Source: an uncultured Candidatus Bathyarchaeia archaeon (GTDB lineage: Archaea; Thermoproteota; Bathyarchaeia; Bathyarchaeales; Bathycorpusculaceae). Taken from it: a stretch of DNA of 17,894 bases. Positions 7,537 to 14,986 of the stretch are shown one piece after another. Each line of letters begins with the position of its first letter. Position 1 is the stretch's first letter. The notes beneath the pieces were generated by a model, which saw only the letters and a list, made by a program, of their open reading frames with translations, searched no databases and was not told where the DNA came from. Both the position numbers and the translations under genes were made by a program. The stretch lies in the NCBI GenBank assembly GCA_964450845.1, contig CAYVGZ010000026.1, positions 1 to 17,894 on the forward strand, read 5' to 3'.

Positions 7537-7690
7537 GAAGGTTTGCACCTAAACGTGAAAGCAAAAGGATTGTAGCTTTATTATATATTTTACCTATTTC
7601 CGCCGCAAAACAGCCATTTTCTAGGCAAAATTCTTTCTGTTTGGCAAGATTTAATTGCATTGGCACGCTAATGTTCAATTGGTGTCGATA

Positions 7691-8596
7691 TTGAATTTAA
7701 AGGGTGTTCATTTTCTCCTGACATATAGATGCGATTTAGAATGTGATCATTGCTTTGTTTGGGGAAGCCCTAAAGGAAAAGGCACGTTTAGTCTTAAGCA
7801 GATAAGGAATATCTTGACAGAAGCCAAAAAGTTGGGAATGGTAAATTTTGTTGCAATAGAAGGCGGAGAACCTTTTCTATACTATCCAATCATGCTTAAG
7901 ACCCTTCAAGAAGCGGTGAAACTTGGTTTTCACGTGGAAATTCTTTCAAACTGTTATTGGGCAACTTGCCCAGAAGACGCCGTAGAATGGCTTCTTCCCA
8001 TAGCCGAAGCCAAAGATGTTGAGCTAAGCTTAAGCAGTGACCTTTATCATGGAGAAAACTGGGAAACTGAAGAGGTAAGAAACGCTGCAAAGGCTGCAAA
8101 GCTTCTAAACATCAAAGCTGGCGTAATATCTGTCAAATATCCAAACAGTGAAGCGTCTAGTATTAAGGAGATTGAGGGAGCAAACGTCAGTTCATGGGAT
8201 TTAATGTACAAGGGAAGAGCATTCTCAAAATTGACCGAGAAAGCAGGCAAAAAGCCTTGGCGGGAGTTTACAAGATGTCCTTACGAAGACTTCGTGAATC
8301 AGAATCGAGTACACATTGATCCCTTTGGGCATGTTCACGTTTGCCAAGGCATCTCAATCGGCAACGCTTGGCAGAAGCCTTTTTCAAAAATAATTGAAGA
8401 ATATAATCCATATCAGAATCCTATTCTTGAAGCTTTAGTTCGTGGTGGTCCAGTGGCTTTAGTTGAAAAGTTTAGCCTGTCCCATGATGAGGTTTATGCT
8501 GATGCTTGTCACTTATGTTCTGCTGCACGCTGCATGCTACGAGATAAATTTCCAGAAATCCTTGTTCCAGACCAAATGTACGGAGAATTCGAATAA
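7691..8596 (+). CDS. Radical SAM enzyme with C-terminal Cys-rich (twitch/SPASM-like) region
   Basis: CxxxCxxC motif (CDLECDHC), GGEPF, and C-terminal CPYED...HIDPFGHVHVCQG...GN and ACHLC. Start refined to TTG 7691 behind GGTG. Confidence 0.9.
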   Translation: MNLKGVHFLLTYRCDLECDHCFVWGSPKGKGTFSLKQIRNILTEAKKLGMVNFVAIEGGEPFLYYPIMLKTLQEAVKLGFHVEILSNCYWATCPEDAVEWLLPIAEAKDVELSLSSDLYHGENWETEEVRNAAKAAKLLNIKAGVISVKYPNSEASSIKEIEGANVSSWDLMYKGRAFSKLTEKAGKKPWREFTRCPYEDFVNQNRVHIDPFGHVHVCQGISIGNAWQKPFSKIIEEYNPYQNPILEALVRGGPVALVEKFSLSHDEVYADACHLCSAARCMLRDKFPEILVPDQMYGEFE

Positions 8597-8613: not shown

Positions 8614-9390
8614 TTACAGTTTCCCTTTTACCTGAAGATTGTGAAGAGCTCTATAATATGCTAATGCGCCTAATATGGCGAATGGGATACTTGTCAAAAT
8701 AAGAGTGCCAATAACATTCAGCTGAATAGGATTGCCTTTGAAAGCAAATTCGCGGAGAGCTTCTGCTGCGACGCTGAGCGGATTTACTGATGCAACTTTT
8801 ACTAAAAATGAGGGAAGATATTGCGCTAAAACTTGTTGCGGATAATAAACTGTGCTGAAGGTCAACAAGGATACTTGTATTATTTGTTGGTATGCAAAGA
8901 AAAATTCTCCATGAGTAGACGCTGATGCAGCGAGCGCAGCGGCGATACCTGCAAGACCCATGGCAAGTATGAAAAGAAAAGGCAACAAAATTAGAGCATT
9001 CAAAACAGCAGGAGCTGGAAGAACGATAAGCGCAACTAGCAGCAGAGAACTGGAATACACCATGGCTGAAAGGCTTCCAGCAATCAGGTAAGCAGCAACT
9101 AGACCCCTATTGCTGATTGGCAAAGAAAGATAATATTGCGTCACGCCTTCCCGAAGGGCTAGCCATATTCGTCTACCTGTGTCCATGGAACCCATAAAAA
9201 GTCCCATAACCACAACCGCTGGGGCAAAGAACTGAAAATAATCAAAACTCATCAATCCATTGTAGACTAAGCCTATCACGAGCATGTCGGAAATGTTTAA
9301 ACTTAAAAGAACTGCCATAAGCCATTTAGTTCGGAAAAAGTAGGAAAAATCTGTGCGTGCTATCTGCAAAATGCGTAGTAATTCTGTCAT
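8614..9390 (-). CDS. ABC-2 type exporter permease
   Basis: About six TM segments, QFFAPAVVVM, FSTVYYP and VNPLSVAAEALR. ATGA overlap with the upstream permease. Confidence 0.85.
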   Translation of the reverse strand: MTELLRILQIARTDFSYFFRTKWLMAVLLSLNISDMLVIGLVYNGLMSFDYFQFFAPAVVVMGLFMGSMDTGRRIWLALREGVTQYYLSLPISNRGLVAAYLIAGSLSAMVYSSSLLLVALIVLPAPAVLNALILLPFLFILAMGLAGIAAALAASASTHGEFFFAYQQIIQVSLLTFSTVYYPQQVLAQYLPSFLVKVASVNPLSVAAEALREFAFKGNPIQLNVIGTLILTSIPFAILGALAYYRALHNLQVKGKL

Positions 9391-10148
9391 CCGCTTTTCA
9401 CACCTTCCACAAGTCGTTGAAGCAGAAAAGTGCCAAGCCCAAGTGTACCAACAGCTAAAGCTGTCAGAACAGCCACAGCAATGCGAGGGTCAACAAGTAT
9501 GCCGGGGTCAAATCCGAGAAGGAAACGAACTAAGTCGGACCCATAAGTTAGTGGACTAAAAATGGCAACGTTAGCATAAGATGTTGGCAGAAAAATGAAG
9601 GGATAGAATACGGTGCTGAAGCGAATGATAAGCGTGCTTAATGCTGTTACGATAGCAGTGTATATGTCTGCTGAACGGAAGGCTATGAACGACAATGCAA
9701 GCATAAGTCCTGAAACGCCGAAACCTAGCCAGAAAAGTGTAGCCACAGCCGATGTTATAGACAATGCTGTGAGGTTTCCTATAATTGACAACGTTACGAA
9801 TAGTGGAATAGCCAAAAGCAAAGCTAACTCAACCCCGCCTTGAAGAGCCACAGATAGGTAAAGCTTCCAGCGTGGAATCGGCAAGCTAAGGAGGTAGGGC
9901 AATCTTCCTTCATGTGCATGTTCTACGAAGTGTCGTCCAGTGTGGGAGCCTATATCAAAGGTCATCATAATCACAAAGCCTATGGCATAGAACTGAAGAT
10001 AATCATCCATTTTAGTGACGAGTCTAGACATTAGTGCTCCGTACATACCTAACTGAACAGCAAAAACAATCCATTCCACTGCTATCCACACTGGCGGATT
10101 AAGCTCTTGCTTTAAATCGAACCATATGAGTCGAATTATGCTATTCAA
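9387..10148 (-). CDS. ABC-2 type exporter permease
   Basis: Multi-TM protein with YLLSLPIPR, FSTVFYP and SPLTYGSDLVR. True start is probably TTG 10148, overlapping the ATPase stop (TTGA); the ORF track start at 10277 lies inside the ATPase. Confidence 0.85.
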   Translation of the reverse strand: MNSIIRLIWFDLKQELNPPVWIAVEWIVFAVQLGMYGALMSRLVTKMDDYLQFYAIGFVIMMTFDIGSHTGRHFVEHAHEGRLPYLLSLPIPRWKLYLSVALQGGVELALLLAIPLFVTLSIIGNLTALSITSAVATLFWLGFGVSGLMLALSFIAFRSADIYTAIVTALSTLIIRFSTVFYPFIFLPTSYANVAIFSPLTYGSDLVRFLLGFDPGILVDPRIAVAVLTALAVGTLGLGTFLLQRLVEGVKSG

Positions 10149-11095
10149 TTGATTGTGGCTCCTAAAACTCGTCCTGTGAAGTGTAGAAATACGTCGTCTA
10201 GGGATGGTTCTGTTACCCTCACAGAAAGAACACGTATGTTCTTTTGATAGCAGAGGTTCGTCATTTTGGGCACCCAAGCCTCAGCCATTGAAACATAAGC
10301 GCGCAACTGGTTCTCGTTTGAAGCAATCACACGGAAAGTCCCTTCAATTTTGCTTAGCTCTTCAATTATGTTATTATTTTTAGGTGCCTCAACTTCCAGC
10401 TCCACTATGTCCCCGCCTGCAATGCTGTCCTTTAGGCGCTGGACAGTTTGACAAACTACACTTTGCCCTTGATCCAAAATTGTTATTCGATCAGCTAAAT
10501 ATTCTGCTTCACGCACTTCATTGGTGGCTACAAGAACCGTTGAACCGTCGTCTCTTAACTTGCGTATGTGATCCCAAATAATGCGTTTACCTCGAAGATC
10601 CACTTGGCTGCTGGGTTCATCAAAAATTGCCAAACGAGGACGCTGAATTAAAACTTTAGCGACTTCTAATCGTTTAGCTTGACCACCTGAAAGATGCATA
10701 AAAAGTTTCCCACGAGCATCCCAAAGCTCTAAATCTTTCAATATCTGCTCTATCAAAGCTTCCCGCTTAGCCTTTGGAACGCCGCAAACAGTGGCATGGA
10801 AACGCAATATTTCCATAGGCTTGTGCCGCCAGAAGCCGCGAGCTCCCTGAAATGCTATGCCTAGTATTTGGCGAACTTGTGTTGACTGTTTAACAACATC
10901 AAAGCCCATTACGCTGGCAGTTCCTGATGTTGGTTTAAGAACTGTGGCGAGGATTAGAAGAAGAGTGGTTTTTCCAGATCCATTGGGACCTAGTAGAACC
11001 ATTATTTCGCCTTCGTTTAGAGTGAAGTCTAAGCCTTTAAGCGCTTTCGTCTTGCCATACAGTTTTGTTAGGTCTTTTGTTTCAATGGCAACCAA
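10145..11095 (-). CDS. ABC exporter ATP-binding subunit (DrrA/NodI-like, with C-terminal extension)
   Basis: Walker A GPNGSGKTT, Q-loop IAFQ, signature LSGGQ, Walker B AIFDEPS and C-terminal EPSLDDVFLHFTG. The switch position reads ATNE rather than the usual TTH. Confidence 0.93.
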   Translation of the reverse strand: MVAIETKDLTKLYGKTKALKGLDFTLNEGEIMVLLGPNGSGKTTLLLILATVLKPTSGTASVMGFDVVKQSTQVRQILGIAFQGARGFWRHKPMEILRFHATVCGVPKAKREALIEQILKDLELWDARGKLFMHLSGGQAKRLEVAKVLIQRPRLAIFDEPSSQVDLRGKRIIWDHIRKLRDDGSTVLVATNEVREAEYLADRITILDQGQSVVCQTVQRLKDSIAGGDIVELEVEAPKNNNIIEELSKIEGTFRVIASNENQLRAYVSMAEAWVPKMTNLCYQKNIRVLSVRVTEPSLDDVFLHFTGRVLGATIN

Positions 11096-11846: not shown

Positions 11847-12344
11847 ATGAGCCTACTTGTTAACGTTTCTGAAGAAGAAGCTTTTCGTTTACTAATGGAC
11901 TATTTCACGTCAAAACATATGAAAATAATAGCTTCAAGCTCCCCTTCTTACATTAGAGCAGAGTTTGGTTCATGGACTTCGATGTCTCTTGATAATGCAA
12001 ATGGAGAGGTTGAAGCTGAAATAAAGGAAAGAAATGGCGGAACCTATACGCATCTTAATTTTAGCTTTTTAAAAGAATACCTGTTCGCTTTGATAGTCGC
12101 AATCTTTGGAACATTATTTTTGTGTGCAGTTATGTGGTGGAGAGCAACCAGAGACTTGCCGCGAATAAATCCCGCAGATGTAGGCAACTTTTTTCTCAAA
12201 ATAAATTTGATTACATTTGGGTTATCGGCGGTTATATTTGCTGTTGTAATCGGACTTGTCGGATACAGCACTTCGCTGACAAGAAAAAGGTTCATTGAAG
12301 AGTTTAACATATTTGTGCAATCGTTGCCTTCCAAAAAGGACTAG
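11847..12344 (+). CDS. Hypothetical membrane protein (soluble N-terminal alpha/beta region plus two TM helices)
   Basis: 165-aa ORF with an ATG start and its own TATA-like element. Two long hydrophobic segments: YLFALIVAIFGTLFLCAVMWW and LITFGLSAVIFAVVIGLVGY. Confidence 0.75.
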   Translation: MSLLVNVSEEEAFRLLMDYFTSKHMKIIASSSPSYIRAEFGSWTSMSLDNANGEVEAEIKERNGGTYTHLNFSFLKEYLFALIVAIFGTLFLCAVMWWRATRDLPRINPADVGNFFLKINLITFGLSAVIFAVVIGLVGYSTSLTRKRFIEEFNIFVQSLPSKKD

Positions 12345-12460
12345 TGCATATTCCACGGGTAGCCGTTAAACTGCTGCGTCTAAAGCTTTTAATCGCTTTT
12401 ATAGCGTCAACATCTATACTAAACTAGTTAAACGTGGAAAGATTAAGGTGTTGACAGTCC

Positions 12461-13465
12461 ATGTCAGAAACACTCAGAGAGATTGAACTTAAAAAGATTC
12501 GTCCAAGCAGACTTAACCCACGGTTAGAGATGAACATAGAGCGTCTTAATGAGCTTGCTACTAGCATACGAGAAGTTGGGTTACTAGAACCGATAATTGT
12601 GAGACCAGTAAATGGTGAATATGAGGTTGTTGTCGGTGAAAGACGATATAGGGCTTCACAGCAGGCTGGACTTGAAAAGGTTCCCGCAATAATAAGGGAG
12701 TACAGTGATGATGAAGTAGTTCAGTTGAACCTCATAGAAAACGTTCAAAGAGAAGAGCTTAACGCAATTGAAAAGGGAAACGTATGCAAATACCTGCTTA
12801 AGAATTGTCCAGAAAAGTATCCTTCCCAAAATGCAATAGCTAAGAAAATTGGCGTAGGCAGCAACGCTGTGTCTCTTTGGCTGCGAACGGTTGAAGTTGT
12901 TCCTCAAGAGGCTCAAAAATACGTTGCGCCTTCAACCATTTCTGGGCAGGTGCCGGAGGGCAAAATTGATTATCAGACAGCGGTTAAGGTTGGTCGTTCT
13001 GTTGAGGAGCCAGAGAAGAGAGTAAAGGTGATTAAGAAGCTTGCGGAAAAACGTCTTCCTGTTAAGGAGAGAACAGAAGTCATTAAGAAGGTGGCTCTTG
13101 AACCAGAAAAGCCTATAGAGGAGGTTTTTGAGGAAGTGGCTAAGGCTCCTTACGAAATGCGATTCACGGCTGACGACAAGAAGCTCTTACTTGAGGGCGT
13201 CAAAACTCAAACTTCAAGAAACGACATGCCCGACCCCAAAATCAAAGCTGGAGCAATCGTTCATGCAGCTATTTGGGAACCTCACATTGTAGACTTGCGA
13301 ATCATGTCTATCGAAAGGAAAAGGCTGAGATACTTTGACGAAGAGGATGCAAAGAGAGAAGGCGGCTACACTCTGAAGGAATTCATGAAAAAGTGGAAAG
13401 AGACTCACGGAGAATGGGATGAAAACCAACTTGTCTACGTAATACATTTCGAGAAGATAAAATAA
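12461..13465 (+). CDS. parB: ParB/RepB/Spo0J family protein fused to a C-terminal ASCH domain
   Basis: ParB N-domain: LATSIREVGLLEPIIVRP, VVGERRYRA, LIENVQREELN. HTH: SQNAIAKKIGVGSNAVSLWL. ASCH from about nt 13151: MRF...LLEGVKTQTSR, KAGAIV, DEEDAKREGG, VYVIHFE. Confidence 0.9.
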   Translation: MSETLREIELKKIRPSRLNPRLEMNIERLNELATSIREVGLLEPIIVRPVNGEYEVVVGERRYRASQQAGLEKVPAIIREYSDDEVVQLNLIENVQREELNAIEKGNVCKYLLKNCPEKYPSQNAIAKKIGVGSNAVSLWLRTVEVVPQEAQKYVAPSTISGQVPEGKIDYQTAVKVGRSVEEPEKRVKVIKKLAEKRLPVKERTEVIKKVALEPEKPIEEVFEEVAKAPYEMRFTADDKKLLLEGVKTQTSRNDMPDPKIKAGAIVHAAIWEPHIVDLRIMSIERKRLRYFDEEDAKREGGYTLKEFMKKWKETHGEWDENQLVYVIHFEKIK

Positions 13466-13490: not shown

Positions 13491-14306
13491 TCATTCGCTG
13501 ATAGTCTTGTAATCCTCCTCGCTTTTGACGCCTATTCCAAGCTCGACGGCTCTGCGAATTTGTGGGTAGCTCCATGGATCAGCTGTTAGACTAGCGCCTT
13601 CGAAGTTTTCAATGACTTTTATTGCTTCGACATCCATGGCTATTCTGTCTCCAGAAGCCAGCACAACGTTTGGGTTTCGCAATTCGCCACATGCTGGTCC
13701 ACCCGAAATGAAGCATTTTCTTCCATCCATAACAATAAGGCTCGGATGCACAACCAAGTTTAAATCCGCAATTTTCTCTTCCAAATACCTAGCATGCAAC
13801 ATCATCCTTTCACTGGGCTTCATAAAACCCACAGCCAACTTTAGACTTAAAGTAAACTTTGCCCACCTGTGCGTTTTCATGCAACAAACACAAACAAGCT
13901 TCTTCGCTGCCAAAGCCCTTTCAGGCAGGCTCATTGTCCTAAGATACTTGCCGCCAGTGCCAACCTTAACCCACTTACCTTCGTCAAAATGCACAACCTC
14001 GGCTCCAGCCTCTTCTGCCTTCTGAAGCATGCCTGTCTCTTCCAAAACCTTGCGTGTAGAAAGCGAAAACATCGAAGACTCTCCTAGAATTACTTTGGAA
14101 GCGCCATGCTCATAAAGCAGTTCGATAACGGCTTTGACAAAATCTGGGTCACTCGAACCAGGCGGAGCATCAGCAGTGTTAAAATTAGGCTTTAACAAGA
14201 TTTCATCGCTCTTCTCAAAAGCTTTGCTGAATCCGCCAATTAAGTCAACAGCCTCTAAGATATTCGCTTTCATATTCTGCCCATTAGTAGCAACCTTGCT
14301 GACCAA
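13491..14306 (-). CDS. DUF362 domain-containing protein
   Basis: ILLKPN, SDPDFVKAVIELL, ILGESS, CCMKTH..AKFTLSLK.AVG, VMDG, GGP and ASGDRIAMD. No C-terminal ferredoxin domain. Start probably TTG 14306 (ORF track gives 14390). Confidence 0.85.
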   Translation of the reverse strand: MVSKVATNGQNMKANILEAVDLIGGFSKAFEKSDEILLKPNFNTADAPPGSSDPDFVKAVIELLYEHGASKVILGESSMFSLSTRKVLEETGMLQKAEEAGAEVVHFDEGKWVKVGTGGKYLRTMSLPERALAAKKLVCVCCMKTHRWAKFTLSLKLAVGFMKPSERMMLHARYLEEKIADLNLVVHPSLIVMDGRKCFISGGPACGELRNPNVVLASGDRIAMDVEAIKVIENFEGASLTADPWSYPQIRRAVELGIGVKSEEDYKTISE

Positions 14307-14500
14307 AATCTTACCGTTACGCCTAAACAGATTCTCTCTAACACAACCGATTCCAACTACAGCACTCATACAAACCACTAACCAATGCAAATGTCACGCG
14401 AAAATTTAGCTTTTACCAACATATATGGGGGATACTAAAAGTTAGAAACCTATTTGTGGAACCATTACGCAAGTAGTTTTCTGCTATGAGGGTAAGCTGA

Positions 14501-14986
14501 ATGGACAAGAAAAAGTATTCATACGGAATATGCGGCGTTTATTGTGGCCAATGCCCAAATGGAAATGGACGAGTAAAGATTATTGCTGGAGAGTTAAAGA
14601 GACTCGTCGATACAGTTCGCTATGACTGGCTCGAGTTCGCAGTTAAATCATTCAAGTTCTTCGAGTTTAGGAAAGGTTTAGAATGGTTTGCTGAAGCGCA
14701 ATGCCCCACGTGTCTGAACGGTGGCGGTGCACCTTGCGAAAACAGAAAATGCGCCGCCGAAAAGAAGCTTGAAAGCTGTCTTCTTTGTGATGATTACCTT
14801 TCCTGCAAACACACAGAGTATCAACGAGATTGGTATCCTTTCGTAGTCGACAATTACAAACGCGTTAAGCAAGTGGGCTTTGAGAAGCACCTTGAAGAAG
14901 AAGAGGAAAGAGTCAGAGCAGGCATAGATTTGATGGGTCATTTGGAAAGATGCTGCAAAGTGGTAAAACTAGAAGAACAACAATAA
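14501..14986 (+). CDS. DUF3795 domain-containing Cys-rich protein
   Basis: CGVYCGQCP, CPTC, C...KCAAEKKLESCLLCDDYLSC, which is the DUF3795 Cys pattern. Confidence 0.82.
   Translation: MDKKKYSYGICGVYCGQCPNGNGRVKIIAGELKRLVDTVRYDWLEFAVKSFKFFEFRKGLEWFAEAQCPTCLNGGGAPCENRKCAAEKKLESCLLCDDYLSCKHTEYQRDWYPFVVDNYKRVKQVGFEKHLEEEEERVRAGIDLMGHLERCCKVVKLEEQQ

Follow-up and report, generated by a model that had tools for sequence, protein, structure and literature searches.

A solitary ParB-ASCH fusion protein of Bathyarchaeia with apparently intact nucleotide-pocket and YqfB-type active-site motifs

A 17,894-nucleotide stretch of DNA (referred to here as the window; G+C content, 42%), which is contig CAYVGZ010000026.1 of the genome of an uncultured Bathyarchaeia archaeon (1.64 Mb in 120 contigs, 93.5% complete), contains a gene for a protein in which a ParB-type nucleotide-switch fold is joined to an ASCH domain. 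The open reading frame (ORF) extends from position 12461 to position 13465 on the forward strand, as do all of the features of the gene given below. It begins at the first start codon past an in-frame stop and encodes 334 amino acids plus the stop. The designation of the gene as a ParB-ASCH fusion is based on the ORF call, the Pfam domains, and full-length orthologues with 47 to 92% identity in ca. 75 species-level genomes. We tentatively favor, at somewhat less than even confidence, the possibility that the product is a DNA-binding protein that is switched by a nucleoside triphosphate (NTP), probably CTP, and that bears an amidohydrolase or reader for N4-acylcytosine.

The closest protein relatives of the fusion are named as Bathyarchaeota or Bathyarchaeia, and databases name such fusion proteins partition protein or "ParB family partition protein." The combination of ParB and ASCH had been proposed in a sequence-only reading of the window, and this architecture was confirmed by Pfam, TIGR00180, alignment to structures in the PDB, and profile and structure matches to YqfB. 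The four motifs quoted in that reading are all present, GERRYRA at residues 59 to 65, ENVQRE at residues 93 to 98, GVKTQTSR at residues 246 to 253, and DAKREG at residues 296 to 301.

Domain architecture of the fusion protein

The N-terminal part of the protein is a ParB_N domain of the ParB/Srx CTPase fold (residues 3 to 96, positions 12467 to 12748; Pfam E value, 1.3e-31). A six-frame search identified the fusion gene as the sole ParB_N gene of the genome (E value, 1.8e-32). The protein scored 137.7 bits against the TIGR00180 parB_part model, for which the cutoff is 58.45, and 142.1 bits against the Noc model TIGR04285, far under the cutoff of 315. Spo0J of Thermus (PDB 1vz0) aligned to approximately residues 8 to 220 with an E value of 5e-29, and Noc aligned as well, both at 33 to 34% identity. 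The Pfam HTH_ParB model matched residues 98 to 211 slightly below its cutoff (E value, 8e-4). This match, the alignment to 1vz0 up to residue 220, and the modeled helices place the helix-turn-helix (HTH) and helical core of the ParB DNA-binding domain at residues 98 to 228 (positions 12752 to 13144). In the AlphaFold2 model, helices span residues 102 to 115, 123 to 130, 134 to 146, and 171 to 228, with a predicted local distance difference test (pLDDT) score of ca. 90.

The nucleotide-pocket motifs, which had been claimed to be intact, were compared across the 75 full-length fusions described below. In the Box I/C-motif region, LNPR (positions 12512 to 12523; aligned to 1vz0 and 7ng0), N19-P20-R21 is found in all 75 fusions; Asn19 occupies the position of the Gln of QPR in Spo0J and Noc. 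Box II (P-motif) is GERRYRA (positions 12635 to 12655), in which G59, R61, R62, and A65 are invariant and E60 is present in 74 fusions. Box III is ENVQRE (positions 12737 to 12754), with E93, N94, and R97 in every copy. Judged from these alignments, the ParB nucleotide pocket is ca. 100% conserved across the 75 fusion species, and the claim of an intact pocket held.

Residues 232 to 334 (positions 13154 to 13462) were assigned as a YqfB-type ASCH domain, a PUA-like beta-barrel that replaces the C-terminal dimerization domain of ParB, from Pfam, a profile match to YqfB, Foldseek, and VIA-align. The Pfam ASCH model matched residues 240 to 333 (E value, 4.3e-6; 27.8 bits versus a cutoff of 21.2). 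The span of ca. nucleotides 13151 to 13462 given in the sequence-only reading was close to the modeled one, in which the first strand begins at residue 232 (position 13154). A profile built from eleven fused ASCH domains had YqfB as its sole match in the PDB (1te7, E value of 7.9e-4; 9kyf, E value of 6.5e-3). The alignment runs from end to end, covering residues 2 to 101 of the 103 residues of YqfB, and pairs K248, T251, R253, and E300 of the fusion with K21, T24, R26, and E74 of YqfB. A PDB search with the ASCH part as a single sequence returned chance-level matches to Aca1 and nothing meaningful.

The octapeptide GVKTQTSR (positions 13196 to 13219) supplies K248, T251, and R253 of this set. 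Among the 75 fusions the Lys is present in 71, the Thr in 56, and the Arg in 57, and Q250 is present in all 75. DAKREG (positions 13346 to 13363) supplies E300, the counterpart of YqfB E74. D296 and E300 are each found in 74 of the 75 fusions, with Asp in place of E300 in the remaining one, and G301 is invariant. The window copy aligned on YqfB therefore keeps all four catalytic positions of the YqfB-type set (GxKxxTxR plus an acidic residue), as had been proposed.

Structure models pointed to the same relative. AlphaFold2 modeled the full-length protein with a pLDDT of 89.4 and a predicted template modeling score of 0.73 and modeled the ASCH domain alone with a pLDDT of 88. The top Foldseek match of the ASCH model was YqfB (9kyf; E value of 4.8e-7, template modeling scores of 0.70/0.77). 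VIA-align superposed the model on 9kyf with a Z score of 12.9 and a root-mean-square deviation of 2.2 Å over 99 of 102 residues, and other ASCH structures ranked lower. These comparisons are global structure alignments; the correspondence of the four residues comes from the profile alignment. Approximately three residues separate the last ParB helix (residues 219 to 228) from the first ASCH strand (residues 232 to 234) in the full-length model. This near-direct junction of helix and strand indicates that the ASCH barrel occupies the place of both the flexible linker and the dimerization domain of a canonical ParB.

YqfB (PDB 9kyf and 9kyh; PMC6972931) shares with the fused domain the barrel, the GxKxxTxR octapeptide, and the downstream Glu, at ca. 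18 to 20% identity. YqfB is a free monomer of 103 amino acids, whereas the ASCH domain of the window is fused to a ParB module, and YqfB has Ile at the position of the invariant Gln250 of the fusions. Unlike YqfB of Escherichia coli, the fusion occurs in genomes with no known writer of N4-acetylcytidine (ac4C). No other ASCH domain was found in the genome in a six-frame search with the Pfam ASCH model, which missed even the fusion gene (E value above 0.001). The Pfam model is thus insensitive for the fused subfamily, and the profile of fused domains was used instead; in the genome of the window this profile matched only the fusion gene.

Distribution, conservation, and previous descriptions of the fusion

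When one genome per prokaryotic species was scanned, 88 relatives of the fused ASCH domain were recovered. Purpose-built ParB and ASCH hidden Markov models confirmed 75 full-length fusions, that is, 74 loci plus that of the window, and clustering at 50% identity yielded ca. 14 clusters with full-length fusions. The hosts are nearly all Bathyarchaeia; six are Dehalococcoidia/Chloroflexota, one belongs to the Thermoplasmatota, and one is an unclassified archaeon. The fusion is present in ca. 26 of the 301 Bathyarchaeia sampled, including 7 of 48 genomes in the family of the window, 6 of 6 in a sister family, and ca. 12 of 15 in another family. In a genome of the same family that lacks the fusion, synteny is maintained through the upstream HD-domain gene and then diverges. 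Because this syntenic relative does without it, the gene is accessory at the family level. Two further contigs with ParB-ASCH genes (L035 and L077) are binned as Acidiferrales/Acidoferrum (Acidobacteriota), and their genes nest among Bathyarchaeial copies in the tree. These two are most likely binning errors; L035 also retains Bathyarchaeial flanking genes.

On average, 63 solitary orthologues are identical to the window copy at 80% of positions in ParB_N, 70% in the HTH core, and 66% in the ASCH domain; all three regions are maintained under constraint. The two active sites are conserved unevenly. The Thr of the ASCH domain is lost in 19 of the 75 fusion species, the Arg in 18, and the Lys in 4. 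The window copy and ca. 70% of the orthologues keep the complete YqfB-type residue set.

The sequence-only reading had raised the possibility that the architecture is novel. This was not borne out. Kaljevic et al. (PNAS 2025, PMC12704722; bioRxiv 10.1101/2025.10.10.680097) list ASCH (PF04266) among the archaea-enriched partners of ParB-CTPase domains and call it RNA-related, in one sentence, and Iyer et al. had earlier noted ParB-HTH fused to ASCH in cyanobacteria (PMC4738411). The window protein belongs to the PF02195-plus-PF04266 class in the Kaljevic catalogue; hundreds of proteins in the databases bear both Pfam labels, as do more than 120 clusters at 78 to 92% identity. In the parts of the text and supplements of PMC12704722 available to us, there was no sign that an ASCH fusion had been assayed, and our literature search found no experiment on any ParB-ASCH protein. 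Phage ParB fusions to DUF3850 in the same study come with ParA; the window fusion does not. A search of BFVD returned phage ParB-like proteins, yet no clear full-length ParB-plus-PUA counterpart. What is new here is the species distribution, the two gene contexts, the missing writer, an operon of TmcA and ASCH, and the difference in conservation between the active sites.

Evidence against a partition function

The similarity of the N-terminal half to known ParB proteins raises the question of whether the fusion serves in the ordinary partition of a chromosome or plasmid. Its score above the TIGR00180 cutoff, its status as the only ParB_N gene in the genome, and its database name as a partition protein are consistent with that role. 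Like the Spo0J/ParB and Noc clamps (1vz0, 6sdk, 7ng0, and 7ol9), it has a ParB_N fold with GERRxRA and ENxQRE, an HTH, and a helical core. However, it differs from them in lacking an N-terminal ParA-binding or membrane-targeting peptide, in lacking the flexible linker, in having an ASCH barrel for a dimerization domain, in having NPR rather than QPR in Box I, and in lacking both a ParA partner and an excess of parS sites. The protein starts at the ParB_N fold, and no ParA-binding peptide of the form [LIFV]G[KR]G[LIFV] was found in it. No ParA gene is located near the fusion gene; the genome has only weak MinD/ParA-like genes, on other contigs. There was no Pfam match to a C-terminal dimerization domain, and residues 232 to 334 are the ASCH barrel instead. 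A search for the bacterial parS consensus with up to two mismatches gave 12 matches versus 8 in a control, none of them exact, although the bacterial consensus would miss a different site. Furthermore, only ca. 26 of 301 Bathyarchaeia carry the fusion, the syntenic relative lacks it, and chromosomal ParABS is generally absent from archaea (PMC12704722). The earlier proposal that this is not a plain partition ParB is therefore upheld by the absence of a ParA-binding peptide, an adjacent ParA, and a dimerization domain, and we consider an ordinary partition role extremely unlikely.

Relatives paired with PDC-M19B

Some relatives of the fusion have a partner gene. In Dehalococcoidia, Thermoplasmatota, the unclassified archaeon, and a few Bathyarchaeia, a homologue of the PADLOC protein PDC-M19B (235 to 279 amino acids; E values of 1e-43 to 1e-68) is encoded directly downstream. 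M19B is found beside 10 early-branching full-length fusions (L096, L097 to L102, L104, L084, and L105) and two partial copies (L086 and L106). In locus L096 (3344 to 7364) the gene directly after M19B encodes an Eco57I-type restriction-modification methylase. In two metagenome-assembled genomes a solitary copy coexists with a paired one (L055 with L105, and L043 with L106, in which the paired copy is truncated). PDC-M19 is a phage-defense candidate in PADLOC that consists of M19A, a DUF488 protein, plus M19B of ca. 260 amino acids. In the ParB-ASCH cassette, ASCH is found where DUF488 would be. The early-branching fusions share the M19B partner of PDC-M19, whereas the clade of the window lacks it.

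A quick tree search with bacterial ParBs as the outgroup, on long outgroup branches, placed the M19B-paired forms near the base, nearest the outgroups, and the solitary forms in two derived groups. The window copy falls within a solitary group of 53 rows with a support of 99. The tree fits loss of the M19B partner in the solitary clades without proving it. PADLOC analysis gave no match at all among the genes neighboring the window copy, M19B included, and no M19B was found elsewhere in its genome with either PDLC04508 or the closest Bathyarchaeial M19B protein as the query. PADLOC also reported a weak match of MTase_II to the fusion, restricted to the ParB_N part. Because the MTase_II model evidently includes a ParB-like N-domain, this match was discounted and not taken as evidence for defense.

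Stand-alone ASCH relatives beside an ac4C writer

Stand-alone relatives of the fused ASCH domain, 103 to 156 amino acids in length, are present in ca. 65 of the 301 Bathyarchaeia and have in common GxKxxTxR and, at the position of E300, an acidic residue. In at least 12 of 25 genomes that have TmcA, gene coordinates place the stand-alone ASCH gene directly downstream of, and on the same strand as, the gene for TmcA/Nat10. Three of these loci, in other Bathyarchaeia genomes (L107, 2218 to 4867; L109, 1891 to 4510; L110, 1940 to 4580), were confirmed with Pfam: TmcA_N, helicase, and GNAT domains are present in a TmcA/Nat10 protein of 770 to 787 amino acids, and the ASCH protein (103 to 125 amino acids) matched with E values of 1e-13 to 1e-15. 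In all three the TmcA stop and the ASCH start overlap by 14 to 32 nucleotides. From its gene order the pair looks like a writer-eraser operon for ac4C, of which the literature searched yielded no mention. As genomic evidence of an independent kind, the adjacency supports the ac4C amidohydrolase (PMC6972931) and tRNA-eraser (10.64898/2026.02.27.708502) activities reported for ASCH proteins, as well as the view that such proteins are the writer's natural counterpart.

Proposed function and alternatives

From the architecture, the integrity of the motifs, the distribution of the family, and its gene contexts, we infer an NTP, a catalytic activity, a substrate, and a biological role as follows. 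The protein would be an orphan ParB-type nucleotide switch, fixed in the chromosome and equipped with an HTH, in which a YqfB-type ASCH domain has replaced the dimerization domain. Its N-terminal pocket would bind an NTP, most likely CTP, which would alter self-association and the DNA-binding state in the manner of other ParB-fold switches. Retention on DNA would fall to the HTH core, and the rigidly attached ASCH barrel would bind N4-modified cytosine. Copies that keep Lys, Thr, Arg, and Glu, the window copy included, would hydrolyze the N4-acyl group. The substrate might be the DNA itself; alternatively, it might be a nucleic acid or nucleotide encountered there. The protein would have no role in ParABS partition and would probably have descended from a two-gene cassette of ParB-ASCH plus the PDC-M19B protein, the partner having been lost. 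We count in favor of the NTP switch the finding that phage ParB-DUF3850 (PUA-like) and archaeal ParB-DUF488-HTH fusions bound CTP when assayed by DRaCALA (PMC12704722). In favor of the activity of the ASCH domain, we count the motif that it has in common with the stand-alone relatives, the location of their genes next to that of TmcA/Nat10, and the removal of ac4C by ASCH proteins in the preprint described below (10.64898/2026.02.27.708502). We give only a small chance to the possibility that, after NTP-dependent DNA loading, the YqfB-like domain removes or reads N4-acyl cytosine marks in DNA (e.g., N4-acetyl-deoxycytidine or a viral N4 adduct) as a system domesticated from a candidate defense cassette.

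Several observations weigh against an NTP-switched N4-acylcytosine amidohydrolase or reader. A closed ParB ring requires a second, permanent dimer interface. The CTP-gated sliding clamp that the sequence-only reading had envisaged is not supported, because the ring-closing dimerization domain is replaced by ASCH and YqfB-type proteins are described as monomers (10.64898/2026.02.27.708502). A closed sliding clamp would be expected only if the ASCH domain or the helical core dimerizes. Hydrolysis kinetics may also differ from those of a canonical ParB, because Asn19 in Box I replaces a Gln that is implicated in CTP hydrolysis and whose Ala mutant was crystallized with CTPγS (the Q52A ParB of Myxococcus xanthus, according to the title of PDB 7bnr; Q52 is at the position that matches Asn19). 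Furthermore, the NTP specificity of ParB folds cannot be predicted from sequence or with AlphaFold3, and this applies to the nucleotide specificity of the fusion as well (PMC12704722). A search for inverted repeats around the gene gave one weak palindrome (positions 12333 to 12352) and nothing operator-like, and no DNA site was identified.

The loss of Thr or Arg in about a quarter of the species indicates that catalysis is dispensable in part of the family. It is possible, if unlikely, that the ASCH domain has chiefly a structural or reading role, either substituting for the dimerization domain or docking a modified base, RNA, or double-stranded DNA without catalysis. The protein would then be an NTP-dependent chromatin organizer or transcription regulator in the manner of Noc, KorB, or VirB. 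Replacement of Thr and Arg, and of Lys in four species, alongside the invariance or near-invariance of Q250, D296, E300, G301, and the ParB pocket, is consistent with this explanation. So are the solitary gene with its own predicted promoter and stable synteny, the crystallization of the TRIP4 ASCH domain on double-stranded DNA (according to the titles of 8yfj and 9kyl), and the reader functions of the PUA-like relatives SRA, EVE, and YTH (PMC4738411). However, the full YqfB-type residue set is retained in the window copy and most orthologues, YqfB-type proteins have been described as monomeric, and the region near the gene has no operator-like palindrome or repeated site.

The source of a modified cytosine is a further difficulty for the enzymatic activity. 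Neither of the ac4C writers TmcA and TmcAL was found in the 93.5%-complete genome, and TmcA/Nat10 was likewise absent from all 26 sampled Bathyarchaeia that carry the fusion. The latter gap is suggestive rather than significant, because only ca. 2 of the 26 would be expected to have the gene by chance. The absence of TmcA and TmcAL makes an endogenous ac4C-RNA substrate unlikely for the fused domain. The genome does contain five genes of the N6/N4 DNA methyltransferase family. Thus, the idea that the protein is an eraser fared only in part: the catalytic residues are kept in the window copy, but 18 to 19 of 75 species lack Thr or Arg, and no writer was found in the genome.

These findings also bear on whether the fusion is a tRNA or rRNA ac4C eraser that uses its ParB HTH region as an RNA-binding module. 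In a preprint, 19 of 19 tested ASCH proteins stripped ac4C from tRNA, with the Lys plus Thr/Glu being essential, and archaeal ASCH proteins with an extra HTH bound tRNA and removed the modification (10.64898/2026.02.27.708502). The stand-alone ASCH relatives in an operon with TmcA would be in keeping with such a role. The archaeal ASCH-AAAD_HTH erasers resemble the fusion in joining an ASCH amidohydrolase to an HTH nucleic-acid-binding module, but theirs is a small, C-terminal, LysR-like HTH that binds tRNA, whereas the fusion has an entire N-terminal ParB NTP switch plus the ParB HTH. We regard an RNA eraser as very unlikely, given the lack of TmcA/Nat10 among fusion-bearing genomes (suggestive only), the lack of TmcAL in that of the window, and an invariant NTP pocket that it would leave unexplained.

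Another explanation is pyrimidine salvage. Free N4-acetylcytidine, or nucleotides of it, would be scavenged from the surroundings and deacylated by the ASCH domain; CTP, the end product, would be sensed by the ParB fold for feedback; and the HTH would tie the process to the regulation of genes. YqfB and EOLA1 work on free ac4C (PMC6972931; 10.64898/2026.08.01.741249), neither an ac4C writer nor an ASCH domain other than the fused one was found in the genome, and a gene for an HD-domain hydrolase is located upstream in 37 of 78 loci. However, a soluble salvage enzyme would hardly account for an HTH core of Spo0J grade that is conserved at 70% identity, the HD neighbor is confined to the closer clade in a manner that fits plain vertical synteny, and the M19B-paired relatives point to the biology of nucleic acids rather than metabolites. 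Salvage therefore appears improbable.

Promoter and neighboring genes

A putative TATA-like archaeal promoter element, GCTTTTATAGCG, is located at positions 12395 to 12406 on the forward strand, ca. 55 to 65 nucleotides upstream of the ATG, and is the single match in the window. In most orthologous loci a box of the TTCTTAAATA type is found at the equivalent place; L027 and L037, the closest relatives, share the variant of the window. The box AATTCTTAAATAG is conserved ca. 35 to 50 nucleotides ahead of the start codon in most orthologues (L028 to L070) and is probably the TFB recognition element/TATA box of a monocistronic archaeal promoter. By this comparison the fusion gene of the window would have its own promoter. 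When the upstream regions of the orthologues were aligned, the TATA box was common to them and no shared palindrome was found.

The immediate neighbors of the fusion gene are the HD-domain hydrolase gene, an ORF with no family match that encodes 165 amino acids (positions 11847 to 12344, separating the HD and fusion genes), and a DUF362 gene. DUF362 is found in 25 of 78 loci and the upstream 165-amino-acid ORF in 4 of 78. No gene qualified as a conserved operon partner for the clade of the window; the HD and DUF362 genes fit vertical synteny. Genes for a radical-SAM protein (positions 7655 to 8596), DUF362 (positions 13491 to 14390), and DUF3795 (positions 14501 to 14986) flank the fusion gene, to which they are linked by synteny in close relatives only. 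A block of ABC-transporter genes, an ATPase plus two membrane ORFs, lies between the radical-SAM and HD genes on the reverse strand (positions 8614 to 11095). The block is absent from the syntenic relatives L020 and L125 and present in only 2 to 3 of 78 loci. From these comparisons the transporter block and the 165-amino-acid ORF look like local insertions.

In genomes of the sister family, a gene for a eukaryotic-type topoisomerase IB (Topoisom_I_N plus the catalytic core) faces the fusion gene in convergent orientation, and the fusion gene overlaps its stop. The loci with this arrangement are L021 (4499 to 6001), L022 (6731 to 8233), L023 (4018 to 5520), and L024 (6987 to 8489).

Implications

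Both ParB-fold CTP switches (2019 on) and ASCH ac4C amidohydrolases (2020 on) are recent discoveries, and the protein described here combines them in a single polypeptide in which both active sites appear to be intact. As the architecture had already been catalogued, the value of this analysis lies in sharpened hypotheses rather than in discovery of the fusion. The fusion protein is a good experimental target: a single purifiable protein could reveal whether a ParB switch is functional when its usual dimerization domain is missing, whether such a switch can gate or target an enzyme, and what a YqfB-type domain does in organisms with no known ac4C writers. If the DNA-loading possibility were true, the protein would be the first DNA-tracking eraser or sensor of N4-cytosine modification.

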